Source: Deltaproteobacteria bacterium (GTDB lineage Bacteria; Desulfobacterota_D; UBA1144; Nemesobacterales; UBA2774). From it: DNA of 64,000 nt. The translations under genes were made by a program, and so were the position numbers. The notes below the pieces were generated by a model. The model had not been told where the DNA came from, ran no database searches, and saw only the letters and a program-made list of their open reading frames with translations. Shown here in pieces: positions 6,407 through 64,000 of the stretch (positions within the stretch are counted from its first letter, which is position 1; each line of letters starts with the position of its first letter). The stretch lies in assembly GCA_040223695.1 (NCBI GenBank), contig JAVKFU010000015.1, positions 632,692 to 696,691 of the forward strand, read 5' to 3'.

Positions 6407-7177
6407 TTAACCGTCCCGAAACCAGTTAATGCTTTCTTCAATTTCAATGTGAAGACCCAGTACTTTTATTATGCTTGTTTGGTGTCGTAAATGCAAATAC
6501 GGTGGGCTGAGTTAACCTGACCAGATAAGGCAGAATTTTGGGGAAGATAGCGAAAAAGTAGTTGCTCCATTGTTTTTTAAGACTGGATTGCCGCGGTCGC
6601 ATAATTCGCTCTCTCGCAATGACGGTATTGGGGTTAGGCGGAGGAATAAAGAAGAAGGGATCGCCCTTCGATTGGACTCAGGACGAGCGGGTTTTTAAAT
6701 GCTCATAATTGGTAAATCCCCCTTAATTTGGCTTTAAATATTCGGTGCCGGGAGTCGATCAACGCATGTGCTATTAGCCAAGGGCATCCTGTTCCTCCGA
6801 TTTGTCGGAACCGTTCCCCTTTTTCTAAGGGGGTATTTATGATCTTCTCGGCGATTACTCCTGAAACAGCTCGTCGTCAGGGTATATAGGCGCGGGGACT
6901 TTGTTTTTTACAGGCCCGATAGCCTGAAGGTAGAGAAATATGGAACGTATCTCTTCATGGCTCAGCTGTGACTGAACGTTTTCAGGCTTGAGCGGGAAGA
7001 GCGCCCTCCCCTGCCTGCCCGTATAGTCCTGCTCATTGTGCAGAAAAGGCTTCTCCATGCCCGGTCATTCGTTTTTTAACCAGCAATATGGGCCGGTTTC
7101 CCCATTTATAAATTTTGAATATATAATTTCATATCAATCAGCTTTTTATCAACTACACCTTAGAAGGAGGAGAATCG

Positions 7178-9073: not shown

Positions 9074-9474
9074 ATAATAACTATGGAGAGAGCTGGGGGC
9101 ATAGTAAGCCCCCTTCCTCTCTCCGCTTTTATACCAACCGTTTCAATCAATGACGGGTCGGAGTTTGTCCTGAGTTTATTATCGGGGTGAAAATGACATC
9201 CTTCGACCGGGGTCAGGATGAAGGGATTTGCGGGATTGCCGCAGCCATAAAAGAAGCCGCGCAATTACAGCTTTCACTCGTCATTGAGAGCAACGGGGGC
9301 TACCCCCCTCATTCCACTCACGTGCATGTACCTTGCATGGTCATGTCCCTTAATTTTATTATAGCAAAATAGTGAGATTATAGAGCTTAAAATAAAAAAC
9401 TTGAGAAAAAGGGTTAACAAGTTTAATATAATGCATTATAATTAGATTGATTTTCTCTTAAAGGAGGATGTACC

Positions 9475-10700: not shown

Positions 10701-11323
10701 TTTTACTACCTCCTGTACATAAAATTTTTACCGACTTTCGGATATACATAATTGCAACCGGCATGCCAGAACCGGGCATGAGGATAAAATACAGTTATAA
10801 TAGAGAGTTACGGCTCTCCGGGCTCTCGCAATAGTTTTGAACAGGTTGACTATTGTATCGTTAAATACAGTGAGGAGTGTATGAAAAAACACAATATATT
10901 GAAAAAGGAGGGAACGCGAGACGAAAGATGAGATTGCCGCAGGGAGTATATCCTGAGTTTATCGAAGGAATCGCAAAAATAAAAAAAGGCAAAGACCGGA
11001 TTTCTCATGTATATTCGAAATGATAGGGCGGGTGAAGACAAACATTCATGCCCCCCATCCTAATCCCCAGCTGCAGAGGGGAAGGTTAGGATGGGGGGGC
11101 ACGGAAGGCGGAGTGGGGGAAATAGGGGCGTCCTTCGATTGGACTCAGGACGAGGGGCAGATAACCTGTACTCGTATTCGGGAGTAAGCGAACTGAAGAC
11201 GGTGATTGGTCAGGCCGGGGAAATAGGAAGAAATCGTATATGAGCACAGATTCTGCGCAGAATTCGTATGCCGGCGGGTGCTTACCTGCTAAAGCCGATG
11301 CGGATGCTGGAATGCTGTAAATC

Positions 11324-33000: not shown

Positions 33001-34027
33001 CCGCCGTTTGAGCCGCAGTATCTACACCCTCCACACTCGTGCTCATCGTGTCTATAGACTTGCTTGCTTGTCCGGTCTGGTCTATCACACCTTGAAGCCC
33101 GTCTTGACTTAGGTTGTTGGTAGATTCTGTAACATCCTCAGTAACACCGAGAAGTTCCCCCAACTCTTCTTTCGTATGCCCGAATATTACTGCCCCTTCC
33201 CCCGCGTTTTTAACTAAATCAACAAGAGATGTCGAAAATTCACCCTGCGCTGTAGTCCCTTCCTTCATCGCCGCAGACTGCTCCAAGGCCGATTCTCTAG
33301 CTTTATCGTATTGCAGACTAAGACCCTGTAATGTCAGACGGAGGGTCTTAAAACCCCTGTCTTGTTCATCAATTGCCCTTTGTAATTGCGTTGATACTGA
33401 TGGTCCAATAAATTCCTCTAAGCCACGACGTTGAAAATCCTCAACTTTTAGGTCAGGAATGTCAACCGTTAATTCAGGAATTTCTATACCCTCGATTTTA
33501 CCAAATTCTTCATTCAAATCACTCTGTAGCGCTTCTCTATATGCCTGCGCTAACTCTTCAATTGTTCTTCCTTTCGCAAGAAATTGTTCAAATTGTCTTT
33601 TAGCTATTTCTTGCAAATTACCTTCAATAGGTTCTGCTTTTTGGGGATTAACAAAAGGTCTTAGATCTACTGGCAAATCAACTATCACGCTTTCATTAGT
33701 GAACGGTTCCAGAATATCTTTAATAAGCAAGTTGATATTATGACCAATTTCCGCAGCCTGTTCACCACCAATCAACTTTGCAGCGTTCGTTAAAATATTT
33801 CCAAATGGAGAATTTGTTTTAAAAACTCTGTCAAATGCAGATTCCGCTTGTTTCATTGACGATTCAACATCTTTATTAAACTTGAAAAAAGTAGATTCTG
33901 ATGTTTTAGTAATAAACTCAAATCCGTCTCTAAATTCTTCGAATGTACTATTAGCTGTCTTTCCTAATTGTATTAATTGCTCATCTTCTACAATAAACTT
34001 GACCGTAATTTCATTTATCTCTGCCAT
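30092..34027 (-). CDS. giant helical protein, phage tail tape measure protein-like
   Basis: 1311 aa with no signal peptide. Long coiled-coil segments. A central Gly-rich hydrophobic block, GGIGGSIGDILGGGSGIAGLFGFAGGAAA...ALAIPLLSGLF, is typical of tape measure proteins. An AT-rich promoter region lies upstream. Confidence 0.5.
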   Translation of the reverse strand: MAEINEITVKFIVEDEQLIQLGKTANSTFEEFRDGFEFITKTSESTFFKFNKDVESSMKQAESAFDRVFKTNSPFGNILTNAAKLIGGEQAAEIGHNINLLIKDILEPFTNESVIVDLPVDLRPFVNPQKAEPIEGNLQEIAKRQFEQFLAKGRTIEELAQAYREALQSDLNEEFGKIEGIEIPELTVDIPDLKVEDFQRRGLEEFIGPSVSTQLQRAIDEQDRGFKTLRLTLQGLSLQYDKARESALEQSAAMKEGTTAQGEFSTSLVDLVKNAGEGAVIFGHTKEELGELLGVTEDVTESTNNLSQDGLQGVIDQTGQASKSIDTMSTSVEGVDTAAQTAADGGLDEFSERVENLNESGGFFEGIKQGFEDFVESVGSNSELIADFFANTLSQMSQNFSDLFFNVLTGKFEDLKDLVKQAFEAILRSFLDLVAAIVTKQIVVSIGALFGLAGSARGAGGSADIVGGVGGIGGSIGDILGGGSGIAGLFGFAGGAAATIPATAVPGSLGVGGLTGGVSVGTLAAGELPSTGFLAGIGGIGGALSILGAVAVAAALAIPLLSGLFKKTPRLDIEFDSIKEEGERRAAFISELLDTDTLINDIIDISVKRSAGLGVGGSDKIKEILGDAIQGAVNNLLDIINKLPADLADKLTDELLNTELDTETVVAGERLFEFDAKGKKIAEKFNQLINGEIQAKFLFAVDGFLQTMFESLGVLPDAAASFLDERFREFESAGSREARAAVGQDLLADLNAFVDAFNIVEGNINDAIGTTINSVNSLSRTLGFDAVPSIDQLTEELGELIKNAELDPETVQNYVELRNAILSLTSEIVSSISSLIGKISQLNSTIAGFGGSSVDLTGFLNTAIGQVQGFFTDNIENLSLSEQEALLDDLAGLGNQLLAEEQAAFQARQEAARRAAEAQRAAIERRIDGLNEEKERIQEAFDERIDALNEELRLAEEFASLAESIRRTLDSILFSPESVLTGVEQVNALQSNIAQLQQELAGTVDPERQVEIVARLEDAFKTLFDVAGDAFGVNSPEFVAIFDQVTGGLDALAELTETRGRSVEEINAEIERLTQEQNAQIERIDARIEALQDRLSAIGEQTAQNTFQASQRLIELFEFIRGEYIRILEERFAQLEEVSEFGFDNEIEGLQAIAGINDEQLVVLRSIESVLQNVQGFAEGTGGLIRDFGRGTLAVLHGREAVLTEDQLVQLRAGLINQFVSAVASGPGLADQFRESIGTGDGLLSRFVERIGGDEGGSGEMHVDINVNVNGGSGATAASIGTEIENMLVRSIRQGGRLRSAIQDAGAKRLN

Positions 34028-34217
34028 TTCCAGTACCTTGATTAACGTATCGACAAATTAATCTTTCACTATACGTTTACTTTATTCCTTAGATAGATTT
34101 ATAGGTGTTTGCTTGCAATCCCTCTATATTTAGAACCCTTTATTTATATTGTTGATTAATGGATACATATATGTAATTACTTAACTAGACTTCATATTCT
34201 TATTCTTTTATAATAGC

Positions 34218-34544
34218 GTGATGAAAGAAATCTGCTCCAATTGTCTTTACACCGGTGAGTCCGGTCATAGCGGAAGAAATGCTTGCAGGTTCCCTTTGGC
34301 GGGCCTGCTATTGGGAGTGGGTGTAAACGGTATTACAAGCGTAATACCGGATAGTGAAACTTCCGGTTCCACGCTCGTACTCGTAATAATTACTATTGCT
34401 TGTTTATTTACCGCCTTCTATTTACTTTACAGGTGTATCAATAAGAGCAGGAGAGCATGTCCCAAGTGTAACTATGGCGATATGATTGAGATGAATACCC
34501 CGGAAGCGGACAAACTAGTGGAGCAACATAGCCTGAAAAATTAG
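34218..34544 (+). CDS. split zinc-ribbon membrane protein, paralog 1 of 4
   Basis: N-terminal CSNC, two TM helices, C-terminal CPKCNYGDMIEMNTPEADKLVEQHSL. Confidence 0.55.
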   Translation: MMKEICSNCLYTGESGHSGRNACRFPLAGLLLGVGVNGITSVIPDSETSGSTLVLVIITIACLFTAFYLLYRCINKSRRACPKCNYGDMIEMNTPEADKLVEQHSLKN

Positions 34545-34566
34545 TTTTATATTCTCAAATACAAAC

Positions 34567-34914
34567 ATGCAAAAACTTTGCCCAGAATGTAACTATATTG
34601 GATACGAATCCCGTGGACAGAAATCACTTTTAATATGGGGAATAGCTTTAACTATTTGGGGAGCAATAACACTACTTGGCGCACTTATGCTTTATTCCTT
34701 TTCCGTTAGGATACTTGCGTCAGTAATTTGGCTCTCATTTGGTGTTGTTACCTTATATTACTACATTCATTACCCAAACATATGCCCAAACTGCAAGCAG
34801 AAAAAAACCATGATCCCTCTCGACACTCCCAAAGCCCAGGCCCTAATTAAAGATCACAACCTGACTATCCCGCAAGAAACATCACAACAGTCCAGCCCCA
34901 AAACCACTCAATAA
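34567..34914 (+). CDS. split zinc-ribbon membrane protein, paralog 2 of 4
   Basis: MQKLCPECNYIGY..., two TM helices, ...CPNCKQKKTMIPLDTPKAQALIKDHNLT. Confidence 0.55.
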   Translation: MQKLCPECNYIGYESRGQKSLLIWGIALTIWGAITLLGALMLYSFSVRILASVIWLSFGVVTLYYYIHYPNICPNCKQKKTMIPLDTPKAQALIKDHNLTIPQETSQQSSPKTTQ

Positions 34915-34959
34915 CCGAACATATCTACCATCCTTTTTTATCTGTCATTCTGAATGTAA

Positions 34960-35245
34960 ATTAGAAATCTCGTCTTTGTATTACCCTTCTCGACATTCAC
35001 GGAATTGGCGTTAAGAAAATAGAATATTGAGGCGTAAAAATCTTTCCGGGACGATTTCGAGCTAGCGAGGAATTGGACGCCCTTTCCTATAAGAAATAAT
35101 GTAATTAGTCTCGCTTCACTAAACCACGATTCTAATCAGGGTTGAATTAAAAGATTTTAGCCGAGATAGCCCATTTTTAGCCACATTCCGTGCAGTCGGT
35201 GATTTTTGCTTCTTTTCATCTAGGAAAAGAAGAAAGATGATTTAT
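34960..35245. repeat. modular composite intergenic repeat, copy 2 (full length)
   Basis: About 85% identical over about 280 bp to the 45.76-kb copy. Confidence 0.8.
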
Positions 35246-35655
35246 CTTTTTCCCGCCCAGCCTGAACCTTTCGAAGAATGTCATTTAGAGCGCAGCCGAG
35301 AAATCTATTCATTTATCCTTTAGAGTCTGTCATTCTGAACCCTGTCCTGAACTCGTTTCAGGATCATTTCAGAATCTCGATTTTCATCTTTCAATCCTTT
35401 AATTCCCTCCTTAGTAAAAGGAAACGAATGCGAACGTGTGAGCATTTAGACGCCTTTAGTTAAAAGCACTTATGCCCATTATCTACCGGCACATAAACTC
35501 TTGGAATAAAATAGGGTGGATTTAAAATACAATATAAAAACCTCACCTACGCCGCTAGCCTATACTCCACTTCCTCTACATTAACCTTATTATCATATAA
35601 CTGAACGACCACTCTCCCTTCATCCTCAAAATCCCAACTGTGTTATAATTTCCTG

Positions 35656-36030
35656 ATGCAAAAACTCTGCACCAATTGCAATTTCATCGGCAAAGGTAAG
35701 CACGGCCTCTTGTCCGGCAATATCTATGTCGGAATAATAGAAGTAGTTGTGGCGGTAATTATACTCTTTACAGGCCAGAAGCTCCTTCAGTCTTTTATAT
35801 ACGGAGCCGTGGTCGCGGCAATAGTAGCAATAGCCGGACTGATAAATATTATGGACTCGTTCTCGGAGGGCCGGCTCTGCCCTAACTGCGGCAAGGACAA
35901 GATGATCCCGCTCGACACTCCCAAAGCCCAGGTCCTCATCCAAGAACACAACCTCACAGTCGGCGATAATGTCCCCCAAAACACGCAGAATGACCAAAAA
36001 CCAGACCAGTTTGAAGCCCCCAAATCTTAA
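35656..36030 (+). CDS. split zinc-ribbon membrane protein, paralog 3 of 4
   Basis: MQKLCTNCNFIGKG..., two TM helices, ...CPNCGKDKMIPLDTPKAQVLIQEHNLT. Confidence 0.55.
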   Translation: MQKLCTNCNFIGKGKHGLLSGNIYVGIIEVVVAVIILFTGQKLLQSFIYGAVVAAIVAIAGLINIMDSFSEGRLCPNCGKDKMIPLDTPKAQVLIQEHNLTVGDNVPQNTQNDQKPDQFEAPKS

Positions 36031-36214
36031 ATCCATCTCTTAACTTCCATTCATAACCAACTATTATTCCAACATATTTATAGTAACACTGCAATACTTC
36101 GACCCACCTTTGCAACCACAGCGCCACAACCCCGCTTTTGTTTTTTTCATTCCCCCCCTTAGAAAAAGGGGATACAGGGGGATTTTTCCTATTTCTTATT
36201 CCCTAATGCCTTTT

Positions 36215-36395
36215 CCTTTCCCGACATTCACAGAATTGGCGTTAAGAAAACAGATTATCGAGGCGTGAAAATCTTTTAGGAATGGGGCTGAATTAACAGA
36301 TTTTAGCCGAGATGGTCTGTTTTTAGCCAAATTCTGTTAAGTCGATGATTTTTGCTTCTTTTTATCAAGAAAAAGAAGATATAATTTTTTGCTTT
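36215..36395. repeat. modular composite repeat, partial copy (modules B+D)
   Basis: Contains cccgacattcacagaattggcgttaagaaaacag...gatttttgcttctttttatcaagaaaaagaag. Confidence 0.7.
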
Positions 36396-36522
36396 TTTCC
36401 CTTGTCACTACATGTCGGGTAAAACCTCTCGGCAATCTCAAACCCCCCTTATCCTGAGCCCGGTCAAAGGATAAATACATGCCCCGCTTTCAATCCCTCA
36501 CCCATCCATTATCCTATCCCTG

Positions 36523-36930
36523 GTGAAAAAACTCTGCACAAACTGCTTCTACATCGGATACGAAGACAGGTCCACACACGGGAGCTTCAAGACCGAGTCC
36601 ATCCTCTGGGCGGTTGCCTTTGTCCTCGCATTCACGGGCGTTTTCGAGTCCGACCTATGGCTGCCGGCAACCATAACATTCGCACTCGCCTTTTTCTATA
36701 CTCTGACCATCTTCAGGGTAAAGATATGCGTCTGCCCAAGGTGCGGCCGCGACTCCATGATCCCGCTCAAAACCCCCAAGGCGGAGGCTATAATTCATGA
36801 GCACCACCTCGTGATGCCCAGCGAATTCAAAAATCCTGCGCGCACGATCTTCGGCCTCACATTCCGCGACGCGCTCCTCATCCTCACCACCATCCTTATA
36901 ACCGTCATGCTCTACAACCACTTCACCTAA
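36523..36930 (+). CDS. split zinc-ribbon membrane protein, paralog 4 of 4 (GTG start)
   Basis: VKKLCTNCFYIGY..., TM helices, ...CPRCGRDSMIPLKTPKAEAIIHEHHL. An extra C-terminal TM helix is present. Confidence 0.5.
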   Translation: MKKLCTNCFYIGYEDRSTHGSFKTESILWAVAFVLAFTGVFESDLWLPATITFALAFFYTLTIFRVKICVCPRCGRDSMIPLKTPKAEAIIHEHHLVMPSEFKNPARTIFGLTFRDALLILTTILITVMLYNHFT

Positions 36931-36939
36931 CTACTCATT

Positions 36940-37900
36940 CCCACTTAATCCTTTTTCTCCCTCTCTCTTGAGGGAGAGGGTAAGGGTGAGGGGGCACCTT
37001 CTGTTAAGTCGGCGATTTTTACTTCCTTTCATCAAGGAAAAGAAGATATAATTTTTTGACTTACCCTTGTCATTGCGAGCGCAGCGCGGCAATCCCAAAT
37101 CCGTCATGCTGAACTTGTTTCAGCATCTAACCCTTTGCCTTTCCCCTTCCGTCATTCTGAATTCATTTCAGAATCTAGAATTTTGCTTTTGCCTCCCTTT
37201 CACCCCTCCATAATCTCAAGAATCCTATTGACTCCATACCCCCAAATCATCTATAATAATTACGGAGGTAATTATGACAAGCGAGTGTGACAGCCCACCA
37301 GACAGGTTGGTCGAAAATTCGTGAGATCCGAAAATGGTGAGTACTTAAACAATCACCATAAATAATAGCTAAAACTAGCTATTGCTTAAAAAAAGCATAC
37401 AAACCAAAAAGGGAGCCACAGTGCTCCCTTTTCCATTTCTAGATATAGTAAACATTATTTGTCATTACAAACGAATGTGAGAAATCTAACCCTTGCTTTT
37501 TCTTCGTCATCGCAAACCGCAAAGTGGAACGACAACGTCGCATTATCGAAGTTTGTCATGCTGAACTACGATTTCGAGTAAGTAAGGAATCGGGTCCATT
37601 GACAAATTGCAACCGAGTAAGTATTCCCCTATCATGCCAGTCCAAACCCAAAACTTTCAGCATCTAGCCTTTCGTCTTGTCCATTCTGACATTCACATAA
37701 TTAGCGTCAAGAAAATCTTATGTTGATGCGTCAAAATGTTTTGGGCCGGGGCGGAATTAAAACATTTTAGCGTTAACATGAGATTTTTAGCAATATTATG
37801 TGCAGTCGGTGATTTTTGCTTCTTTTCATCTAGGAAAAGAAGAAAGTCTTTATCTTTTAGTCATTGCGAGTGGAGCATATTATGCGTAGCGCGGCAATCT
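36940..37900. repeat. about 1-kb non-coding cluster of stacked repeat units
   Basis: Contains the gagggagagggtaagggtgagggggc hairpin, a D-module end at 37.00-37.05 kb, gtcattgcgagcgcagcgcggcaatc, gtcatgctgaa, cattctgaattcatttcagaatc, a gtcatgctgaactacgatttcgag...gaggaatcgggtcc C-type unit, and a B+D composite at 37.69-37.87 kb. Confidence 0.75.
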
Positions 37901-37910
37901 AATCTTTTCA

Positions 37911-38240
37911 TTAAGAGCCAGCAATACCCCTACGGCGCCCGAGAGCCTCAATCCCTTCCCCCTTGGCGCCCCTTTTCATTTTCCTCTCCTGAGACTTCAG
38001 GGCAAACTCTCTGAACGCCTCATCCACGGCAATCACTACCCGAAACGCCCTCATCTTCGGATGCCCCTCGAACTCTAGCTTCTCCAGGTTATTCCATATC
38101 TCGGAATGCACCAGTGTGCCTACGGTCATCCCCTGCCCGTAGCGCTGAGACTGGCATAGCTCCCATAGAGATACCCACTCCCGCTGGTGCTGGGGGAGGT
38201 TCCGTATAAATCCTTCCGTCTCGTCCCCCGCCTTTTTCAA
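37911..38240 (-). CDS. downstream -1-frame ORF of a G/GT-like pair (candidate frameshift extension)
   Basis: Its frame is open upstream to about 38476, so it overlaps the last about 52 codons of the 38321..38890 ORF in the -1 frame. No conventional start or RBS of its own. Basic sequence. Confidence 0.4.
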   Translation of the reverse strand: MKKAGDETEGFIRNLPQHQREWVSLWELCQSQRYGQGMTVGTLVHSEIWNNLEKLEFEGHPKMRAFRVVIAVDEAFREFALKSQERKMKRGAKGEGIEALGRRRGIAGS

Positions 38241-38320
38241 TATGCGAAGCTCGTCCCTGTCGTTCTTTTCAAACTTGAGCCTGTTCTTCCGCCTGAGTTT
38301 CCTCTTTTCTTCGAGCTGAC

Positions 38321-38890
38321 TTACCCTGCGTCTGATTGAGTCTGCGCGGTACCTTCTTTTTTCCCCTTTGAAGCGGACTTCGAATCCCTCGTATATCCGC
38401 TCGAAGTACTCCCTGACTCTTCCAAAAAATTTTCCTCTTCTTTCTTCTCCTCCTTCGTGACCTTGCCGGCTATGAGCTCATAGCTCGACCTGAAGTTGCT
38501 AAGCAGGAAAGAGGACTTACAGAACTCATTGTAGAGCCATTCTTTAGTGTCCTTGTCGTATAGCACCCGCTCGCCCTTGTCGGTAAGCCCTGTAATGTCC
38601 TGTATGAGGTTATATACCAGGAACTTCGCGGCGCGCTTCGGGTCTCCTCCGAGAATCTTGAAGCTCCTGTCCTCGACAGTCAGGTCTTGCGTAAGGTCCC
38701 TTATCTGAGTAAGCCTCGCCACTGTCGGGTACGGACACTTGAACCCCACCTCGCGCCAGCCCTCGTCGTAACCCACCCACTCGCCTTTCTCGTCCTGGTA
38801 AGCGGGCCAGTCCTCATCCTCTATATCCCTGTAGGGATATATCGTCACATAATTTGATACATGTTTGGTCAAACTCTTAATTTCAGGCAT
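38321..38890 (-). CDS. acidic protein, phage tail assembly chaperone (gpG)-like candidate
   Basis: 189 aa, acidic (EDEDWPAYQDEKGEWVGYDEGW). Its 3' end holds T TTT TTG (about 38422-38428) and GGGGAAAAAAG (about 38355-38365), both inside the overlap with the downstream -1 ORF. Confidence 0.4.
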   Translation of the reverse strand: MPEIKSLTKHVSNYVTIYPYRDIEDEDWPAYQDEKGEWVGYDEGWREVGFKCPYPTVARLTQIRDLTQDLTVEDRSFKILGGDPKRAAKFLVYNLIQDITGLTDKGERVLYDKDTKEWLYNEFCKSSFLLSNFRSSYELIAGKVTKEEKKEEENFLEESGSTSSGYTRDSKSASKGKKEGTAQTQSDAG

Positions 38891-39130
38891 ATCCCCTCCT
38901 TTACACTATTGCACTATGTCATTCTGAACTTCGTCCTGAACTCGTTTTTCAGGATCTATTCAGAATCCAATCCCTTCCCGCTCATCCTGAGCCTAGTCGA
39001 AGGATGTCATTGAGTGGTTGCAAAGCAACAGCGGCAATCCCGTCTTTCTCTCGTCATTGCGAGCCGCAAAGCGGCGCGGCAATCTCGTCCTTTCCCCTCA
39101 ATCATTTAATCCCCTACCGGGAAAAGAAAA

Positions 39131-39178
39131 GCTAAAAAAGGGCTGTTAGCATTCATTTATTGAATATAAACAGCCCCT
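39131..39178 (-). terminator. rho-independent terminator after the 491-aa gene
   Basis: Minus-strand hairpin aggggctgtt-loop-aacagccct, followed by a TTTTTT run. Confidence 0.55.
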
Positions 39179-39190
39179 TAGCAATAATCC

Positions 39191-40666
39191 TTAAACAACG
39201 GCCTCAACCATATCCTCAACTGTTGGCTGGTTGTTCTTCACCGTAACTGTAATGTCCGTATTCGGCGCGCTGCTGGTATCAAGCCTGCCAAGGAAGCTCT
39301 TCTCATCCGTCACCGGGTCCTTCGAGCTCACGCCCGGATGCGGACTCCCCTCGAACTTGGCTTTGGGCACGCTCATTGTCACCTGATGGCTGTTGTCACC
39401 GATATAGGTCCATATAAAGTCGAGCTGCGTCTCTGTTCCCGCAACTGTCTTCTCAGCGAATTGCTGGCTTCCGTACTGATAAGTGAATGAGCCGCTTACA
39501 GATCCTTCCCCGGGGGTGATCGCGCCCTTGATCGGCGACCCTACGACGAAGTTACCCTGTATGGTATTCTCGATCACGAGACTCAGGTTTTCAAACTGGT
39601 TTGTGGTCTGCTCCACACTGTCCACCTGCACGCTCGATTCCCAATGTGCGTAAGGAATGTTTTCAATCGAGGCCGGAGTCCCGAATATGTTCTCTGACAG
39701 TATTTGAAATGCCTTCCCTACTACGTTCATATTGAGCTGCGGAAGGTCGGTCGGGTCCACGTTAAGAGTAAGATTGCTTACCTTGTTCCCCCTGATAAGC
39801 ATGAGCGATTCAATATCGGTAAACCTCAGAAGGAAACTGATACCCTCGGGAATGGTGGAGCCTCTATAAATCGTATGTGTGAAGGGTTTAATTACTTCAT
39901 CGCACGCCGCCCCGTTAGAGTGAGCCTTCCTGAGCCCGTTGGGATGAGCAGCCGAGTCCAGCGTAAGCTGCCCCGCAGCCGTGCTGCCTATCTTTACAAT
40001 CTCTGCGTCATTTCCCGTGCTTAACTGAGCAAACTCACCGGCTGCGAAACCAACTTCGGATGTCACTGATACCGTTGTATCTCCGGCGGAAGCCGCTGCC
40101 GACAAAGTCGTACTTGCCCCCGCTGTTGACGTTCCGACTGTGGTGTAATCACTATTCAAGGCGTGTAAGTAAAACAGCCCCACTGTCGCTATATCGAGCT
40201 CAACAGTCATATCCGCTCCTGTGTCATAGTTTCCCTCACGGAAGTTTGAAAGTACACGCGAGCCGGAGAGCGCCTGCGACCTCTGCAGATCTCTTCCGCC
40301 GGACGGTGTGAAGGACCTCACGTTACCTAGCTTGAACCAGTTATTAGCCGGGTCTACCTCAACCACAGCCTCCCCCGATTCATGCCTGTAGTTTATCTTT
40401 GTGTTCGCGTCGAGACTCACCGTCGTGCCAGACACGTAACCTGCATCCACCTTTACGAATTCCATATTGTTGTCGTTCCCGACCTTAAGAATATCCCCCG
40501 CCGCGATATTAGTATCGCTCGCTACCGTAACGCTAGTCGCTCCGGGGTTAACAGCTGCGGCAAGCGTAGTGGACGCTCCGCCCCCGACCGCGGCTGACGG
40601 CGTCACGCCGTTTACCTGTTCAATCTTGTACCAAATCTCCGCACTTGAGCCTGAAGCCTGTGCCAT
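39191..40666 (-). CDS. hypothetical structural protein with two tandem ~100-aa N-terminal domains; possible phage major tail protein
   Basis: 491 aa, no signal peptide. Thr/Ser/Ala-rich and beta-rich. An internal duplication is visible (ASTTLAAAV...TSVTVAS...AAGDILKVGND / ASTTLSAAASAGDTTVSVTSEVGFAAGEFAQLSTGND). The phage assignment rests on gene-order context only. Confidence 0.3.
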   Translation of the reverse strand: MAQASGSSAEIWYKIEQVNGVTPSAAVGGGASTTLAAAVNPGATSVTVASDTNIAAGDILKVGNDNNMEFVKVDAGYVSGTTVSLDANTKINYRHESGEAVVEVDPANNWFKLGNVRSFTPSGGRDLQRSQALSGSRVLSNFREGNYDTGADMTVELDIATVGLFYLHALNSDYTTVGTSTAGASTTLSAAASAGDTTVSVTSEVGFAAGEFAQLSTGNDAEIVKIGSTAAGQLTLDSAAHPNGLRKAHSNGAACDEVIKPFTHTIYRGSTIPEGISFLLRFTDIESLMLIRGNKVSNLTLNVDPTDLPQLNMNVVGKAFQILSENIFGTPASIENIPYAHWESSVQVDSVEQTTNQFENLSLVIENTIQGNFVVGSPIKGAITPGEGSVSGSFTYQYGSQQFAEKTVAGTETQLDFIWTYIGDNSHQVTMSVPKAKFEGSPHPGVSSKDPVTDEKSFLGRLDTSSAPNTDITVTVKNNQPTVEDMVEAVV

Positions 40667-40803
40667 ATTGTTCCACCTCCGGTTTTTATATAAAAAAGCC
40701 CGGAACGGCCTGAACCGCCCGGGCTTATATTTTTAATTTGTTATTAGTCATCCTGAATTTATTCAGGATCTAAACTTTTATGATCTAATCCGCTTTCATG
40801 AGA

Positions 40804-41931
40804 CTAGTAATTGATAATCTTCCCGTTCTCATCCCATCCTGTAGTCCTCTGATACTGGCTTTGAAAATCATTACGCCAACTGTCGTTCCACTTCCAGTCG
40901 CCGCTTTTTATCTTCCACGTGTTATAGTCCACACTGTTGTCAGCCGATTCGGCATCGAAAACTTCCAGCGCAGCTACACCGGGGTTAGCGCTCTGGAAAT
41001 AGTTATTTTGAATCTCATTATTCGAACTCTTCCATATGCCCAGATGAGTATGGCTCGTATCGTCTGTTGAAGGATACTTTTCAAGTATAAATTTATTATT
41101 GGTAATTCTAGAATTTCGCACATGATGATATATGGCCATTCCCCAGGAATTATCCTCGATCAGGTTTTTTTCGATATCCAGATTTTCTATCCAGGTTGAG
41201 CATTTCGAGCCGTTCATCTGAATCCCCCTGCCCCCGTGATTTCGTATTACGTTACCGCGAATAGCAACTCCGGAAATCCCCTTGCACTCGAAATCAGATA
41301 GATATATGCCGTGGCAGTGTTTGGGACTCGAGCCCCGCCAGTCCTTGTTGTAGCACTCCCCTTTTCCAGTCCCGTTCGACTCTATTATGTTATTTTCGAT
41401 TGTTATATTATCAGTCGATATGATCAGGATTCCCTGATACGTGTTTCGGTGAATTTTATTATTCCGTATGATATTATTGCCTTTGTAAAGCTTTACCCCG
41501 TCCCAGCCTTTCATTACTTCAAAACCCTGAAACACGATCCATTCGGCGTCGATCTCGACCCTGTCGCCTTCGCCCTTTCCCGGAACGATAATAGGCTTAT
41601 GTCCGGGGTAGGCTTCGATTGTAATCGGTCTCAGACGTGTCCCGCTGTTTTTGACAACAATTTTTCCGGTATAGACACCGCCTATTACCCTGATAATATC
41701 ACCCGGGACTGCTGAATCGACAGCTCCCTGTATGGTTGTGTAATCGCCGTTAGCGCCCGGCGCAACTATCTTCACAGATGGCAAGCGCGCACCTGCTGAT
41801 TCGACGCAATCAGCGCAGCTGGAAGGATCGGAGAGAGTGTAAACGCCTCCCACCACAGCCGGGGCCTGGTCGATAAAATATAGAGGTAAAATTGCAGTCA
41901 AGACAACTGACAGAATTGCCGTCGATTTCAT
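40804..41931 (-). CDS. secreted right-handed parallel beta-helix repeat protein (pectate-lyase-fold; possible depolymerase/tailspike-like)
   Basis: Signal peptide. Repeated NNxIxxN / GxxIxxN beta-helix coils: NNIIRNNKIHRN, ITIENNIIESNG, IRGNVIRNHGG. Confidence 0.6.
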   Translation of the reverse strand: MKSTAILSVVLTAILPLYFIDQAPAVVGGVYTLSDPSSCADCVESAGARLPSVKIVAPGANGDYTTIQGAVDSAVPGDIIRVIGGVYTGKIVVKNSGTRLRPITIEAYPGHKPIIVPGKGEGDRVEIDAEWIVFQGFEVMKGWDGVKLYKGNNIIRNNKIHRNTYQGILIISTDNITIENNIIESNGTGKGECYNKDWRGSSPKHCHGIYLSDFECKGISGVAIRGNVIRNHGGRGIQMNGSKCSTWIENLDIEKNLIEDNSWGMAIYHHVRNSRITNNKFILEKYPSTDDTSHTHLGIWKSSNNEIQNNYFQSANPGVAALEVFDAESADNSVDYNTWKIKSGDWKWNDSWRNDFQSQYQRTTGWDENGKIINY

Positions 41932-42204
41932 AATTTACCAGTTGGCTTCCAGACTTGGCGCTGGATAACCGTTTAATATTATAACTGCCAGACATAGTAA
42001 ATAGCTTTTTACGAATTTAATGCATCTTCCACCAGCCTCAGAACCCGACAAAGATTTTTATTTTCCCCTTCCTTTAACATTTTTTACCTTTTACGTTTTT
42101 AAAAATCATCCTGAATTCATTTCAGGATCTCGTCTTTTATAGATACATTCGCAATTTCCCGCCGGTTTCTAGAGCACAACGTCCGTCTATATAAAAATCG
42201 GCTA

Positions 42205-42906
42205 TTAATAAATAGTCCTCCAGGCATAAGCATCCGCCGCGTCCTTTGCGCAAACTTCAATAGTATCCTTTACTCCCGCATTACCTTCTACCATCCAAAA
42301 TTTGCCTCTTTCAGAAACGCTGCAAGTTGGTTTAACAACAGCCCCTCCGTTATCAGAAATTTTAATCCCCCCCGCTTCAACGGAAACCAGGCTCTTTGCA
42401 TAAATACTATCGGGTCTATTGGCGCCGGTTTTCCCAATATCGCCGCTTGCGTCAGTATTAAATATAAAATCACCATCGTAAATTCTAACTCCAATAACAC
42501 GAGAAATACTAGCTACAACAACTCCGTTACCCCAAAACTCAATATTGTTAACACCATTCATTTTAATTCCAGTATCGTCATCTTCGCCTACCAGTCTCTG
42601 GTCAAATATAATTATGTTGTTAGCACCACCTTGGCCTATAACTGTCTGGTCACTTGTATTGACTGAAAGTAAATTTATATCTGCTGTATTAGCTGCGTTC
42701 CTAGCTTTTATAAGAGTAGAGTTATTAGGACCTTTCAGTGAAGCAGAACCAGTTAGGTTGATATCGCCCGCCATACTCCCGCCGGATTTCGGCAGGACAT
42801 TGGAGGGAATTATAATGTCTGCTTCAATAATATCCTCATTGATCTGCGATTGAGCATAACTTGAAATAAGAATTATAAATACGATAACGAGTATAAATTT
42901 TCTCAT
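42205..42906 (-). CDS. secreted protein with tail-fibre-like SGGSMAGDINL motif
   Basis: Signal peptide. LPKSGGSMAGDINLTGS resembles the GG[ST]M[TA]G motif of phage tail fibre proteins. Confidence 0.4.
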   Translation of the reverse strand: MRKFILVIVFIILISSYAQSQINEDIIEADIIIPSNVLPKSGGSMAGDINLTGSASLKGPNNSTLIKARNAANTADINLLSVNTSDQTVIGQGGANNIIIFDQRLVGEDDDTGIKMNGVNNIEFWGNGVVVASISRVIGVRIYDGDFIFNTDASGDIGKTGANRPDSIYAKSLVSVEAGGIKISDNGGAVVKPTCSVSERGKFWMVEGNAGVKDTIEVCAKDAADAYAWRTIY

Positions 42907-42950
42907 GGATTTCTTTTTTACCTCAATTCACCATTCATTCCGAATGTCCC

Positions 42951-44386: not shown

Positions 44387-44416
44387 TTAACAAAACTCCC
44401 TTAATCTATTGGGAAA

Positions 44417-45267: not shown

Positions 45268-45312
45268 TTTCAAAACACTAGCAGATATAATCTAGTAAGG
45301 AATAAAAAGGGC

Positions 45313-45358
45313 ACAAAAAAAACGGAGATGATGTTCTCAGTCTCCGTTCCTTTTGTTT
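45313..45358. terminator. bidirectional rho-independent terminator
   Basis: aaaaaaaa-AACGGAGA-tgatgttctcag-TCTCCGTT-ccttttgttt. An 8-bp stem is flanked by A8 on one side and a T-rich run on the other. Confidence 0.6.
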
Positions 45359-45644: not shown

Positions 45645-45649
45645 AATTC

Positions 45650-46040
45650 CGTTATTATATTTCTACATGTCTTTAACCTTAAAAAAACGTCATACTGATT
45701 TCATTTCAACGTCTCGTTTTTCAACCCCCTCATCCTGACCACAATCGAAGGATGTCATCCTTTCGTCTTTTTCTTTCCCGACATTCACAGAATTTGCGTT
45801 AAGAAAATAGTTTGTTATGGCTTAAAAATCTTTTCGGGACGATTTCGAGCAAGTGAGGAATCGGACGCCCTTTCCTATATGCAATAATGTCATTAGTCCT
45901 GCTCCACTAAACCACGATGCTAATTACGGTAGTATTAAAGATTTTAGACAGAATGAACTATTTTTAGCCAAATTCTATGCAGTCGGTGATTTTTGCTTCT
46001 TTTTATCAAGAAAAAGAAGGAAATTCTTTATCTTTTCTTT
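45650..46040. repeat. hairpin unit + modular composite repeat copy 3 (full length B-C-D)
   Basis: catcctgaccacaatcgaaggatg hairpin, followed by tcccgacattcacagaatttgcgttaagaaaatag...ggacgatttcgagcaagtgaggaatcggacgccc...gatttttgcttctttttatcaagaaaaagaag. Confidence 0.8.
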
Positions 46041-46818: not shown

Positions 46819-46862
46819 ATCACTACCCCTCCTTTATCTTTCACCCCCATCTTCTTTAAACG

Positions 46863-47620
46863 CCATTGCGAAGCTCCGAAGGAGCCGCGGCAATCTCATC
46901 TTTAAATAAGTCATTCTGAACTACGATCTGGAACGTGTGAGGAATCGGGTCCACCGGCTAAATGTAATCGAGAAAATGTTCCCTGGTCGTAGTTGTTCGA
47001 ATTCAAAATTTTCAGTGTCTCGTTTTTGTTTTTTTGCTTTTGCCCTCCCGACATTTACAGAAATCGCGTTAAAAAATAAATTACGAAATCGTAAAAATAT
47101 TTTTGGGCTGCAGGTGGAATTAAAATATTTTAGACGTAGTAATTTATTTTTAGCTATTTCTGTTAAGTCGATGATTTTTGCTTCTTTTCATCTAGGAAAA
47201 GAAGAAACTATTTTGCTTTTTATTTGTTATTGCGAGCGTAGTAACACGAAGCGCGGCAATCTCATTCTCAATCCCTCTTCATCCTGAGCCTGTCGAAGGA
47301 TGCTCCCCCCTTTTCTTTTTCTTCCTCCCCATCGAGGAGGAAGTTAAGGTGGGGGGGGACACTATTCTCTTTTATATCCCACAGGCATATACCCACAAGC
47401 AATATGCTATCAAGCTATTATATAAAGTATATCCCTTAGAAATATAAACTATCCCAAAACGGAAAAACACACAAGGGGGTTTTTTACATCAGAGGCAACT
47501 AGTCATTGCGAGGCTCCGAAGGAGCCGCGGCAATCTCATCTTTAAATAAGTCATTCAGAACTACGATTTCGAAGGTGTGAGGAATCGGCCAATGGCTGAA
47601 TGCAATCAAGCATGTGTTCC
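46863..47620. repeat. repeat block: two about 110-bp direct copies flanking a B+D composite element
   Basis: 46863-46975 and 47503-47615 are near-identical (gtcattgcgaggctccgaaggagccgcggcaatctcatctttaaataagtcattc(t/a)gaactacgat...gtgaggaatcgg). A B+D module lies at 47030-47225. A GC hairpin aggaggaagttaaggtgggggggg lies at about 47325. Confidence 0.75.
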
Positions 47621-47791
47621 TAGTACATACTTACCCGTACACAAATCTTTCAGCATCTAATTGTTCAAATATCACTTTCATTCTGAGTCCAATCGAAGGA
47701 TACCATTGCGAAGGGGCGAAGCAAGGTACGACAACCTCCCTTCCTTCCCTGATTTACAATCTAAGTCCCCGCCAAAACGTCTTGCTCACCT

Positions 47792-49689: not shown

Positions 49690-50760
49690 CCGTAGGGTCC
49701 TCCTGAGAAAAGATATTCAAAATATATCCTACCTCCCCGCAACTTTCACCGTTTTCCGCTATTTATTTTTTATTCCTTCCCTCTGTGAGTGGAAGGTCAG
49801 GACAGGGTGTCATTTCGACCAATAGGAGAAATCTTGTCTTCGCCTTATCGCCGTCATTGCGAGGCTGCAGCAACCGCGGTAATTCCATCTTCCATCCCTT
49901 CTGTTGTAGGAGGGGCATCTTACCGCGAACAAACACCCCCTCATCCTGAGCCCAGTCGAAGGATGTCATGCTTTCATCTTTTGTACGTTATTGCGAGCAT
50001 TCGAAGAATGCGCGGCAATCTTGAATCCGCCACTACTATTATGAACAAGTAACAGTTCTGAGCAAGCGAAGAACTGGTCGCCCTTAGCCAAATGCAATAA
50101 TGATATTGTTTTGCTGAAGATTTACTGTACCCAAAATAAATCGTGTCCATTTGTTGCGTATAACCGTGAAATTATCCCATGTATTCTTTCATCTCTGATA
50201 GATTTCAGAACCCCTTATTGAGTAGAAAAAATATATAACATATATTCAATATGTTTACTATATCACATAGTTTAATACCTTTCTTTTTTTCCTGAGCCAG
50301 AGCCATGGATTCCATAGTTAAAGTTAAATATCACCGTGCCCGGAGGGTCTGTTAAAGTAAAAAACGAACCGTTAATGAAGATTATGTAATATTTTATGTT
50401 TACTATTATATATATTAAGTACAAGATCTTAGCTTCCATATTTTATATATACTTTATATTTTCTCATGCCTTTCCAATAATACTTAACAAACTTCAATTC
50501 AGAATACAGGTACTAAATTAGAATGCACTTTAAGTCGTTTTTGCGCACTTTGCATGCCCTATTTCCCCTATGGCTCTTGTAATTCTTTCATTGTTGTGGC
50601 TATCAACTCTTGGCAAACTCGAGAAAGCCGGGCGTTTACCCCACAACCTGCAATGCATCAGCACAGTGAATAAATTGCAATTTTCTCTCCCTCTATTTTC
50701 AAACGTCTCGGGATTCGGATAGACTGTCATATATTCCATCCCTGAGCCAAGGAGTAAAAC

Positions 50761-51642: not shown

Positions 51643-51984
51643 TTACTACTTAATATGGCCAGGTGCGCGTAAACAAACCCCCTCATCCTGAGCTTGTCGA
51701 AGGATGTAATTCTTTTGTCTTTTGCCTTTCCAACATTCACAGAATTAGCGTTAAGAAAATAGCACGAAGCAACCTCGTCTTTTCATCGCTCCGTAGGAGC
51801 CGCCTCTTGCCGCAAACAAAGACTTGTTTATACCGAACGCACTCACTGTGTGCAGTCGAAGAATGCCATATCAATTGACGTAAGCAAGCAAATATTTAGG
51901 TCTTATTGCATTTAAATCTGGTAATACCGGAATAAATTAGCCACCCTCGAAAAAATGCAATCAAGTGCCTCTATACACAAAAAA

Positions 51985-53241: not shown

Positions 53242-53754
53242 AGGATAATCCTCCTCCCGTTATAAGGGAGAAACCGGCAACTAATATAATATATGAGCGT
53301 GACTATTTATAGTTTTTTATTCTTAAAGCTGACGAGCGATAGCTTTATCAACTTTGGTACATGGGGTTGATTTACTCCCCCTGGCATAGTTGTATTAAAT
53401 AAAAGGAACAGTACACACTTACCCCAATAACAATTATGCTATTCAGCATCCGACGGTCGAATTCCTAAACTAAACCAAATCAGATCAGGATAGGTGCCCT
53501 TTAGAATAAACCGATTCCCGTCACTCCGAAGGGGCAATGCTCCTGCGGCAATCCCACATCCGTCATTCTGAATTCATTTCAGAATCTCATCTTTTGCCTT
53601 TACCTCTCCCGACATTCACGGAATTGGCATTGAGAAGATATCTTTATCCAAATTTTTCTTGTCATTTCGACCCCTTCGATAAACTCAGGATATACTCTCC
53701 GCTGCAATTCCGTTTTTGTCCTTTATTTCCCGCTTAGCAAAAGCGGGTCGATCC

Positions 53755-56329: not shown

Positions 56330-56570
56330 TAATCAATCCTCCTTATGCTAATTTTCGCAATCTCATTATACACTAAAAAAAGCGGTCTTTAGCTAAATAA
56401 TCCACAAGCGGTATAAAGCCTTTCGTCCTGAGCTTGTCGAAGGACGTACAACAAATGATACTTTGTTATCAATTGTAAAAGCCTCATTGCCCGCCCGCTT
56501 TATTTCCGTTTCTTCTCTTCCCGGCACTGGCGCTTATTCCTCAAATCCGTAAAAATAATATTCAAAGACA

Positions 56571-58080: not shown

Positions 58081-58352
58081 TAGTCACTGCGAGCCGTAAA
58101 GCGGCACAGCAATCTCGTCTTTTGCTTTCCATCGTGAATCCTGAATCGTGCATCTTTCTTCGTTTAAACACCCTCATATTGAGCCAATTCGAAGAATGTA
58201 ATCTATTCATTCCCCTCTTTCCATTATCTCCCTGACTTCTATCGCATTATCCTGAGCAGCACGTCACCCGGTCGCACTTCCCACTTTGAATTCCCACTTA
58301 TATCCTTTATCCTTTTTCCCTGCATTAACAATAAGAGAGGAGCGGAAATAGC

Positions 58353-61088: not shown

Positions 61089-62017
61089 CGTAAAATCTGT
61101 GCTTATACCGATTTCTTCCTCTCTCCTTCGTTTGTTAAAAGAGGGCACTCGAGCCCGCTCGTCCTGAGTCCAATCGAAGGACGTCATCCTTTCGTAAGCA
61201 ATACAACGTGGTCTTCTTAGGAAACACACTTGATCTTTTCAGAAGACACACAATGTGTGTGCTTCTTTTCATCAAGGAAAAGAAAATATTTTGCCTTCTC
61301 TGTACCATTGCTAGGACGAATTCGAGCGAGCAACAGTTCTGAGCGACCTTAGCTGAATGCAACGATGTACTTGAACTTTGGGCAAACTTTCTGAAAATAA
61401 AACATTCGGACGCCTTCTGTAAAAGGCATGGTAGTTATTGTGCTACGAGAAGCGGCACTTGAATAGTAAAGCGGCAAGGTAATCCCACTTTTCATACCTT
61501 CAGTTGTAAGAGCGGCTTCCAGCCGCGATTCCTTTAATTTTCTTCTTTAGAAAAAATAGCGTGATTCTACGAATTCTGCGAGAATCCTCTGCCAGCTCGA
61601 CAATCCTTAATGGTCCCATTCCTTCCATATACGAGCAGATGCTATCTGCCGCTCATGCTGAGGCAGGTCGAAGCGCGTCATTTCAAGCCCTTTGATAAGC
61701 TCGGGATAAACTCCGCGCGGCAATACCGTCCTTGTCTTTAGTCCCTTCCTTAGAAAAAGGAAGGTTAGGATGGATTTATTTCTTCCTTTGTCATCCCCAA
61801 ACGCCTTTATCGGAAATCCGATTCCTTAAAATTCCTTCCCCCTTTCGGTTGGGGAAGGCCAGGATGGGGGGCACACCTGTCTCTACAATTTCCCCTCGGA
61901 ACATAATCAGCATATATCCCCGCCACCCCCGCTCCCCTCACCCGAACAATAGCGCATATCATCCGCCGTTGACATCCTACCGCCTTTATGAGAACATCTG
62001 TATTAGAGGCAATATAA

Positions 62018-63699: not shown

Positions 63700-64000
63700 C
63701 ATGCTGAGCCCAGGCTTTAGTCGTCATCCTAAATTCATTTCGGGATCTGATCTTTTGTTTTTTTCCTTTCTCGATATTCACAAACGATTTCGAGCTAGTG
63801 AGGAATCGATCGCTCTCTCCTAAAAGCCAGCATGTAACTTTCTTGACTCCTATATTTCATATTATCTAATCGGCGTTGAGAAGATCGCTTGTTAATGCAT
63901 AAAAAATGTTTTGGACTTCGGGAGGAATTAAAACATTTTAGCGTTCATAAGGGATTTTTAGCCACATTCTGTGCAGTCGGTCATTTTTACTTCTTTTTAT
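63700..64000. repeat. modular composite repeat copy 4 (runs off window end)
   Basis: gtcatcctaaattcatttcgggatc hairpin, followed by cgatattcacaaacgatttcgagctagtgaggaatcgatcgc...ggaattaaaacattttagcgttcataagggatttttagccacattctgtgcagtcggtcatttttacttc. Confidence 0.75.

Follow-up and report, generated by a model that had tools for sequence, protein, structure and literature searches.

CGTC-type tagged hairpin repeats in a deltaproteobacterial genome and their probable link to small GIY-YIG nucleases of the Ssn family

The 64,000-nucleotide stretch of a Deltaproteobacteria bacterium analysed here (assembly GCA_040223695.1, contig JAVKFU010000015.1, positions 632,692 to 696,691; hereafter the window, 64 kb in length) contains approximately 55 short, tagged hairpin units of four sequence types, T1 to T4, which were identified by pattern searches and a fuzzy catalogue that was then refined. 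These units are new members of the class formed by CGTC-tagged repetitive extragenic palindromes (REPs) and Ssn-related motifs (SRMs), and they probably represent CGTC-superfamily hairpins that act as single-stranded DNA (ssDNA) sites for a small Ssn-family GIY-YIG nuclease. Every catalogued T1-T4 unit is intergenic.

An initial annotation had placed a palindromic unit at 37130-37160 and listed three unit types, all of which are present, with the GTCAT head of the reported unit at 37151. This unit, at 37151-37175, reads (C)GTC, ATTCTGAA, ttcat, TTCAGAAT and C, and the general form of T1 is GTC followed by ATNCTGAA, a loop of 4-5 nt, TTCAGNAT and C. The corresponding form of T2 is CATCCTGAG-N4-6-TCGAAGGATG, that of T3 is GTC, ATTGC, GAG, a variable inner hairpin, CG(C), GGCAAT and C, and that of T4, with copies at 35280 and 49809, is GTCATTTCGAcc..GGAGAAATC. 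T1 forms an 8-bp stem with a 5- or 4-nt loop; in T2, T3 and T4 an outer stem of 5-6 bp is instead joined through an internal loop to an inner hairpin. In pattern searches of the window the chance expectation for each of the three listed types is 0. The T1 core CATYCTGAATTCATTTCAGRATC occurs with no mismatches at 37153, 42107 and 53564 and with two at 63725, so that the copy at 63.72 kb, which had been listed as the same unit, is present but has one broken pair and one wobble. Additional T1 units were found at 37103 (GTCATGCTGAAC..) and 40747, and the interval 37069-37175 reads, in order, GTCATTGCGAGCGCAGCGCGGCAATC, ccaaatcc, GTCATGCTGAACTTGTTTCAGCATC, a 23-nt spacer and GTCATTCTGAATTCATTTCAGAATC.

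In T1, T3 and T4, GTC lies directly 5' and C directly 3' of the palindrome; the tag [C/T/A]GTC was tallied by eye in 24 of 28 such units. The first tail base, C, is conserved and the bases that follow are TA, TC or TG, not CA. T2 lacks this arrangement, as its tag is CCTC or GCTC and the base after its palindrome is G. All eight positions listed earlier for T2 are correct, and the description of the unit types as starting with gtcat fails for this type in the window, in which GTCAT comes after the unit.

Two published repeat classes are relevant to these features. First, Di Nocera, De Gregorio and Rocco (2013; PMC3733652) described a superfamily of REPs whose unpaired tag is CGTC, with TGTC and CCTC as frequent alternatives, and which have an 8-9-bp stem that nearly always starts with AT, a 4-5-nt loop and a short tail of consensus CCA. 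Its members, which include dRS3 of Neisseria and RPE-4/6 of Rickettsia, were reported from Proteobacteria, Chlorobi, Bacteroidetes, Spirochaetes and Thermotogae, mostly as head-to-head dimers, and a dedicated transposase is absent (PMC3733652). T1 fits this definition and is structurally of the CGTC-2 type: the units share the unpaired CGTC, TGTC or CCTC tag, an 8-bp stem (in T1) opening with A-T and T-A, the 4-5-nt loop, many intergenic copies, several stem variants per genome and the lack of a linked transposase. Their short tail begins with C but is CTN rather than CCA, and in many cases runs into a T-rich stretch. They also differ in the build of T3 and T4, where a GA-rich internal loop separates the 5-bp outer stem from an inner hairpin of variable sequence, and in their spread, as units of the window's types are known from far more than the five phyla of that study. 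No strings matching the units were found in the supplementary tables of that study (PMC3733652).

Second, Chenal et al. (2025; PMC11893778) showed that SsnA, a single-domain GIY-YIG protein of 94 aa, binds and cuts the NTS, a longer form of dRS3 (CGTCATTCCCGCGMAVGCGGGAATCYRG; CGTCATTCCCGCG..GCGGGAATCYRG). SsnA accepts the forward strand as ssDNA only, double-stranded DNA and RNA not being substrates. Cleavage needs the three bases directly 5' of the palindrome and binding needs the C 3' of it, while the loop is dispensable in identity and can be extended (PMC11893778). Ssn homologues, products of single-domain GIY-YIG genes of the cd10448 type, occur in many phyla, flanked by SRMs in an insertion sequence (IS)-like layout of motif, gene and motif; the Neisseria system restricts transformation, and ssDNA cleavage is known only for the Neisseria and Wolbachia enzymes (PMC11893778). 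The window units share with the NTS and SRMs the GTC before the palindrome, the AT at the stem start, the C after it and the tolerance of loop insertions, and T1-type units likewise flank homologous small GIY-YIG genes in a unit-gene-unit arrangement, as set out below. They differ in their A/T-rich stems, in the absence of an ssn gene from the window, and in that T2 and T3 showed no link to such a gene.

The association of T1 with GIY-YIG genes was detected from both directions. Among 120 loci fetched by the T1 24-mer alone, seven contain a GIY-YIG gene of ~95 aa (PF01541, E 1e-12 to 1e-16), and in a metagenome-assembled genome of Calditrichia the gene has T1 on both sides. The T1-linked protein is 43% identical (E 9e-28) to the GIY-YIG product of a gene flanked by canonical NTS. 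When metagenomes were searched with the T1-linked GIY-YIG protein alone, 80 homologue loci were kept, 75 of which have a GTC-tagged hairpin within 400 nt of the gene and 60 of which have one on both sides. Unit density is 3.52/kb near the gene and 0.11/kb elsewhere, a 32-fold enrichment. The nearest upstream unit is in forward orientation in 60 of 68 of these loci (median distance 37 nt), and the nearest downstream unit is reversed in 57 of 67 (median 27 nt). The units beside these genes have an 8-bp stem in 184/202 cases, a 5-nt loop in 161/202 and a 3' C in 199/202, and their stems are mostly AT[G/C/T]CTGAA, that is, of the T1 type. The commonest are ATGCTGAA, ATCCTGAA, ACCCTGAA, ATGCCGAA, ATTGCGGG and ATTCCCGC; ATTCTGAA, the stem of the unit at 37151, occurs four times. 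Given the 75 flanked loci out of 80, the layout and the stem type, we therefore conclude that one clade of Ssn-like nucleases has T1-type hairpins as its cognate repeats, a conclusion well supported by association.

Several observations weigh against reading the window units as Ssn sites. No GIY-YIG/Ssn-like ORF is present in the window, as judged by a regular expression, a five-sequence hidden Markov model (HMM) and an 81-sequence HMM with filters off (best E 1.2), and such a gene is also absent from the contigs of the closest relatives. The published SRM pattern, HGTCWYN(0-2)YYVSBRHN(0-5)WNVSBRGN(0-2)RNCYNB, has no match in the window; it passes the canonical NTS and rejects T1, T3 and T4, the T1-type stems escaping it because they are A/T-rich (ATYCTGAA) and the pattern was built from GC-rich stems. 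The units form co-oriented head-to-tail arrays, unlike the head-to-head dimers that predominate among published CGTC REPs, although such pairing is a tendency of arrangement and does not define the unit. T3 and T4 are rare in the 80 nuclease loci and do not flank the gene, and no recurrent nuclease was found beside T3 in 120 viral loci, where phage structural genes alone recur; Ssn homologues are themselves rare in viral contigs, with four loci. T2 is absent from the 80 nuclease loci, and its CTC tag and G tail differ at positions reported to be critical for SsnA; a scan of viral contigs for T2 (44 stretches) returned one GIY-YIG gene, ~3 kb from the unit. A link of T3 and T4 to Ssn may be drawn by analogy, through the common tag, stem start and tail, while a link of T2 to Ssn is doubtful.

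Each unit consists of four parts, namely the unpaired (Y)GTC tag, a stem whose first pairs are A-T and T-A, a short loop and a C directly 3' of the palindrome. On the Ssn-nuclease reading, this hairpin would most likely act in ssDNA rather than in RNA, with the tagged strand folding once it becomes single-stranded during replication, repair, DNA uptake or transposition. By analogy with SsnA, a single-domain GIY-YIG nuclease would then bind the stem and the 3' C and cut on the 5' side of the tag, a few nucleotides away from it. Its gene would move as an IS-like cassette of forward unit, gene and reverse unit, and the ~55 solo units of the window would be scattered, fast-turning-over copies from such cassettes that gather in intergenic mosaics and nest in one another's loops. 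We infer that the organism has an Ssn-type nuclease with T1, and perhaps also T3 and T4, as its targets, as we infer the way in which solo units would be copied.

The structure of the units is under evident constraint. As ssDNA, T1 folds into an 8-bp hairpin of -5.4 to -6.7 kcal/mol (z -3.8 to -5.5) and T3 into a 5-bp outer stem that an internal loop separates from an inner stem, with z of -2.1 to -3.5 in copies whose inner stem is long; as simple hairpins, T2 and T4 are weak folders under nearest-neighbour rules (z ~ -1 to -1.6). Compensatory changes between the arms, as proposed in the initial annotation, are real in T1, T2 and T3. The third stem pair of T1 is T-A, C-G or G-C, T2 exists in the compensated forms CATCC..GGATG and CGTCC..GGACG, and the inner stems of T3 are wholly different among copies (GCTCC/GGAGC, CATTC/GAATG, CCGC/GCGG). 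A scan of a genome collection with TCATYCTGAATTCATTTCAGRATC, in which two stem positions (Y and R) were left unconstrained, recovered the free-pair combinations C-G 81 times, T-A 48 times, T-G three times and C-A once. For a set defined by anchors alone, every GTCAT-N6-N5-N6-ATC in the window and all fetched loci was taken; all six free pairs are complementary in 216 of the 311 cases, which have 20 different 5' arms. The covariation score of its 127 distinct sequences is 0.389, compared to 0.159 ± 0.013 with shuffled partners; none of 500 shuffles reached the observed score, and slid registers gave at most 0.177. Because the anchor-defined score far exceeds the shuffles, the covariation is significant, and stem covariation in these units is real and well above both the shuffled and the slid controls. 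Among 169 foreign copies of T3 with 87 distinct inner segments, every segment is able to pair into a hairpin with 2 bp or more, and C-GNA-G apices, a DNA mini-hairpin motif, are common. The claim that selection acts on the hairpin rather than on the sequence captures the former but is too strong for the latter, because the GTC tag, the AT of the stem and the 3' C (199/202) are near-invariant and the same 24-mer is found in more than ten phyla.

The catalogued units of the window are as follows.

T1 units
37151..37175, plus strand: the reported unit, with GTC tag, 8-bp stem ATTCTGAA, loop ttcat and C tail; DNA fold -5.4 kcal/mol, z -3.8
37103..37127, plus strand: T1 GTCATGCTGAACTTGTTTCAGCATC; z -5.5
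40747..40770, plus strand: T1 with a 4-nt loop, between a gene stop and a terminator
42105..42129, plus strand: T1, tag changed to ATC
53562..53586, plus strand: T1, same sequence as the unit at 37151
63723..63747, plus strand: T1, part-decayed, stem with one mismatch and one wobble
45689..45713, plus strand: T1, degenerate, broken stem
34944..34969, plus strand: T1, degenerate
35329..35376, plus strand: T1 with a second T1-like unit in its loop
38918..38967, plus strand: T1 with a second tagged unit (tTCGTCCTGAAC..TTCAGGATC) in its loop
37555..37664, plus strand: T1 arms around a loop insert of ~90 nt (module B)
46910..47019, plus strand: T1 arms, module B in loop
47550..47657, plus strand: T1 arms, module B in loop

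T3 and T4 units
37069..37094, plus strand: T3, GTC, ATTGC, GAG, inner mini-hairpin CGCAGCG, CG, GCAAT and C
37860..37899, plus strand: T3, inner segment longer
39006..39039, plus strand: T3-like
39053..39084, plus strand: T3, inner stem CCGC/GCGG; z -3.0
46862..46895, plus strand: T3, tag changed to GCC, inner stem GCTCC/GGAGC
47226..47261, plus strand: T3, tag GTT
47502..47535, plus strand: T3, inner stem GCTCC/GGAGC, GAA loop; z -3.5
49853..49885, plus strand: T3
49987..50020, plus strand: T3, tag GTT, inner stem CATTC/GAATG
53520..53553, plus strand: T3-like (GTCACTCC..GCGGCAATC)
58083..58114, plus strand: T3-like (GTCACTGCGAG..CAGCAATC)
6586..6623, minus strand: T3
9234..9267, minus strand: T3-like
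53661..53710, plus strand: T3/T4-like, reverse-oriented T2 in loop
61677..61726, plus strand: T3-like, reverse-oriented T2-like segment in loop
10930..10981, minus strand: T3-like, with a nested T2 that reads plus on the window
35280..35305, plus strand: T4-like GTCATTTAGAGCGCAGCCGAGAAATC
49809..49833, plus strand: T4 GTCATTTCGACCAATAGGAGAAATC

T2 units
38983..39006, plus strand: T2, gCTC tag, CATCCTGAGcctagTCGAAGGATG
45731..45754, plus strand: T2, CCTC tag
47280..47302, plus strand: T2
47679..47702, plus strand: T2 variant CATTCTGAG..CGAAGGATA
49942..49965, plus strand: T2, whose reverse strand begins the spurious ORF MTSFDWAQDEG
51684..51706, plus strand: T2
56424..56446, plus strand: T2 variant CGTCC..GGACG, a compensated pair
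58175..58198, plus strand: T2, degenerate
61160..61183, plus strand: T2 variant CGTCC..GGACG
6662..6685, minus strand: T2
9197..9220, minus strand: T2
11129..11152, minus strand: T2

Micro-ORFs that begin in the reverse strand of T2 include MTSFDWAQDEG.. at 49969 (minus strand), MTSFDRGQDEG.. at 9193 (plus strand) and MTSFDWTQDE.. at 61187 (minus strand). The spurious ORFs noticed previously are thus real, and two of the positions given for them, 49763 and 60948, are their far ends, the starts being at 49969 and 61187. The 3' arm of T2 (CGAAGGATG) can alternatively pair with CATCCTTTCG, which lies downstream and precedes a T-run (45746-45765, 49955-49983 and 61173-61197), such that T2 would have two mutually exclusive hairpins, the second terminator-like.

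The orientation of the units bears on whether they work in DNA or RNA. Between 35 and 64 kb all units are on the plus strand, with no inverted pairs, and between 6.6 and 11.2 kb six of seven are on the minus strand. This orientation is constant although the adjacent genes are on the minus strand from 38 to 49 kb and on the plus strand from 50 to 63 kb, and the divergent region at 49.7-50.8 kb is also filled with units. A single orientation across genes on both strands fits a strand-specific process at the DNA level. The alternative, in which the units work in RNA as classical REPs that protect 3' ends, attenuate or terminate transcription, or set relative expression within operons, appears to us improbable. 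Some units do lie in 3' untranslated regions, among them the T1 unit at 40747 between a stop codon and a terminator, near-palindromes can fold from either strand, and Di Nocera et al. argued for RNA roles of CGTC units from their positions and G-T pairs (PMC3733652). In viral contigs, T3 is strand-biased relative to the gene strand, with 77 of 102 units on the C-rich strand, and adjoins highly expressed structural genes. Against these points, the orientation in the window ignores the gene strand and units fill the divergent region, the invariant unpaired tag and 3' C would lend an RNA hairpin no stability, a terminator-like score was obtained for one T1 only, with the genuine terminators separate, and SsnA does not bind the RNA form (PMC11893778). 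Unit content is moreover wholly different in orthologous intergenic regions, unlike that of conserved regulatory elements, and no unit matches Rfam 15 at gathering thresholds, with chance-level matches only at E up to 5. For the same reasons of constant orientation across both gene strands and of location in divergent promoter regions, the suggestion that the units are REP-like stabilisers of transcripts at gene 3' ends does not fit, while their REP-like nature as tagged hairpins with covarying stems holds.

In both parts of the window, as in the related contigs, the units read forward on the C-rich strand. In other genomes the unit-bearing strand is C-rich for 77/102 T3 units and 41/110 T1 units, opposite trends that indicate no universal rule. 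A flip in GC skew at ~29-30 kb was considered as a replication terminus and this reading was set aside, the signal being mostly gene-strand bias. Skew computed from coding sequences only around this point is 0.10 for plus-strand and -0.11 for minus-strand genes on the left, and -0.03 and -0.16, respectively, on the right; because a strand-independent component is seen on the right side only, the terminus inference is weak.

The units are separate, rapidly turning-over modules and not pieces of one element, because T1 stands alone elsewhere and the unit sets of orthologous intergenic regions differ. T1 was found alone in many unrelated genomes, its exact 24-mer occurring in more than ten phyla (Bacteroidota, Calditrichia, Ignavibacteria, Proteobacteria, Treponema, Patescibacteria, Chloroflexota, Clostridia, Scalindua and others), and T1, T3 and T4 occur together on one strand in some foreign contigs. 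For the proteins encoded from 30 to 46.5 kb, three IMG/VR contigs have counterparts with 76-91% identity, and the orthologous intergenic regions of these contigs hold entirely different sets of units. The window proteins themselves are on record solely in Logan contigs of run SRR26209086. This result answers the concern raised at the outset that the units might be fragments of a larger element. T3 is abundant in viral contigs (>120 stretches) and T2 is widespread in them, with 44 exact stretches, mixed GTC/CTC tags and a G tail.

This turnover also bears on the possibility that the units are orphan selfish palindromes, partnerless relics whose hairpin shape reflects only their original mode of copying, which we regard as unlikely. 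Consistent with such an origin, decayed copies exist, with mutated tags at 42105, 46862, 47226 and 49987 and broken stems at 45689 and 63723; the window yielded no gene for a nuclease or transposase; and CGTC families have been proposed to be heading for extinction (PMC3733652). Set against this, many copies are intact and identical (37151 and 53562), the compensated variants argue for ongoing constraint or recent copying, and the turnover between close relatives points to recent gain and loss. GIY-YIG cassettes with intact genes are also common in metagenomes, with at least 569 confirmed stretches.

It is very improbable that the units are REPs or REPINs mobilised by a REP-associated tyrosine transposase (RAYT), the partner suggested initially. 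The general anatomy of tag and palindrome and the high copy number are similar, and T3 forms REPIN-like inverted doublets, 20-130 nt apart, in the IMG/VR contigs L035, L055 and L065, unlike the co-oriented layout of the window. GTAG REPs and REPINs with their RAYTs, and the subterminal hairpins of IS200/IS605, share with our units a hairpin with a short unpaired tag and, on the Ssn-nuclease reading, its recognition as ssDNA by a dedicated nuclease or transposase, with orientation effects that follow from strand specificity; they differ in the tag and in the fold of the partner (HUH/Y1 rather than GIY-YIG). The tag here is GTC, not GTAG, and no Y1/HUH transposase was found by Pfam among the ~45 ORFs of the window. 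A jackhmmer search of the window and 2.24 Mb of unit-bearing loci was likewise null, with the limited sensitivity of an approximate IS200 TnpA query. No RAYT flanked by CGTC units was reported by Di Nocera et al. (PMC3733652).

The window units are interleaved with other repeat families, and some are nested: T1 within T1, or reverse-oriented T2 within T3/T4-like units (35329-35376, 38918-38967, 53661-53710, 61677-61726 and 10930-10981). Three companion families were observed. The first, LP, is a long imperfect palindrome of ~160 nt that reads CGACATTCACAGAATTGGCGTTAAGAAAA ... TTTTTAGCCACATTCTGTGCAGTCG, followed by the hairpin CTTCTTTTCATCAAGGAAAAGAAG. It has eight copies, all on the plus strand:

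29715-29990, plus strand: LP
34978-35253, plus strand: LP
36209-36399, plus strand: LP
37674-37863, plus strand: LP
45766-46040, plus strand: LP
47036-47225, plus strand: LP
57925-58089, plus strand: LP
63748-64000, plus strand: LP
51718 and 53597: partial LP

RNAalifold on five copies predicted 40 pairs, 13 of them with compensatory changes. LP was found in no fetched foreign locus, the sole other copy being in L001, a contig from the same sequencing run that overlaps the window end. The second family, module B, is ~85 nt long (ACGATTTCGAGCAAGYGAGGAATCGGACGCCC...) and lies at the apex of the long LP copies and in the loops of three T1 units:

29789-29880, 35051-35140 and 45839-45930: module B inside LP
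37567-37650, 46922-47010 and 47562-47645: module B inside T1 loops
50052 and 63784: further copies of module B

Module B, which looks as if it inserts into hairpin loops, is also present in the related IMG/VR contigs L038, L050, L056, L079 and L115; neither module B nor LP was found in the Ssn-bearing loci. The third is a G-rich hairpin repeat, CCCCC-N-GGGGGAAGGTYAGGRTGGGGG, at 11067, 28535, 30047, 47325, 57817 and 61840, with a related copy near 36960 and further copies in the foreign contigs L050, L056, L115 and L124. Intergenic mosaics of Neisseria (dRS3 with RS repeats) and the BIMEs of E. coli similarly consist of short tagged hairpins interleaved with other repeat families and vary in content between strains; the window differs in its companions (LP, module B and the G-rich hairpins), in loop nesting and in a strict orientation over ~30 kb.

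Because new units enter older loops, the forward strand is always C-rich, and T2 and T3 are abundant in phage-like contigs without a link to Ssn, it is conceivable, as a tentative and rather unlikely reading, that T1-T4, module B and LP together make up a single set of ssDNA hairpin elements, nested and strictly co-oriented. T2 and T3 may then have strand-specific partners of their own. If so, the orientation would arise because units insert into the strand that a replication fork or a transcription bubble exposes, or because cleavage on that strand is selected against.

The repeats lie among several further features. A phage-tail-like gene cluster at 30092-46570 encodes a 1311-aa protein, a Phage_tube_2 protein (39191-40666) and a beta-helix protein (40804-41931), with relatives in IMG/VR contigs 3300028845_000195 and 3300010223_000008 and in L115 (76-91% protein identity); gene order is conserved in these relatives and intergenic repeat content is completely different. 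Three paralogous small ORFs at 34567-34914, 35656-36030 and 36523-36930 have two CxxC pairs and hydrophobic segments, suggesting from sequence that they are membrane zinc-ribbon proteins; none has a Pfam match, homologues are found in L038, L079 and L050, and repeat mosaics separate the three. At 37228-37433, between repeat clusters, a near-consensus promoter (TTGACT-18-TATAAT, 11/12) is followed by GGAGG, a 16-codon ORF (MTSECDSPPDRLVENS) and a strong hairpin terminator (37406-37433), and this segment may be a small peptide or small RNA gene. An NHL-repeat beta-propeller gene at 7178-9073 contains ten in-frame 138-nt tandem repeats and has minus-strand T2/T3 units on both sides. A protein with TPR and HEPN_LA2681 domains (E 1e-36) is encoded at 25405-27006; small ORFs come after it, immediately before the repeat-rich half of the window begins.

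Collectively, the repeats explain the long intergenic regions of the window and the presence in it of many small ORFs that are spurious yet look 'conserved' (MTSFD.., ..PRNDG..), a help to annotation. If they hold genome-wide, co-orientation and loop nesting would bear on how repeats of the CGTC type multiply. A family of A/T-rich stems that the published pattern misses, and of which the same T1 24-mer is spread over more than ten phyla, is now tied to the Ssn ssDNA nucleases, and it provides more candidate pairs of enzyme and site for ssDNA tools.

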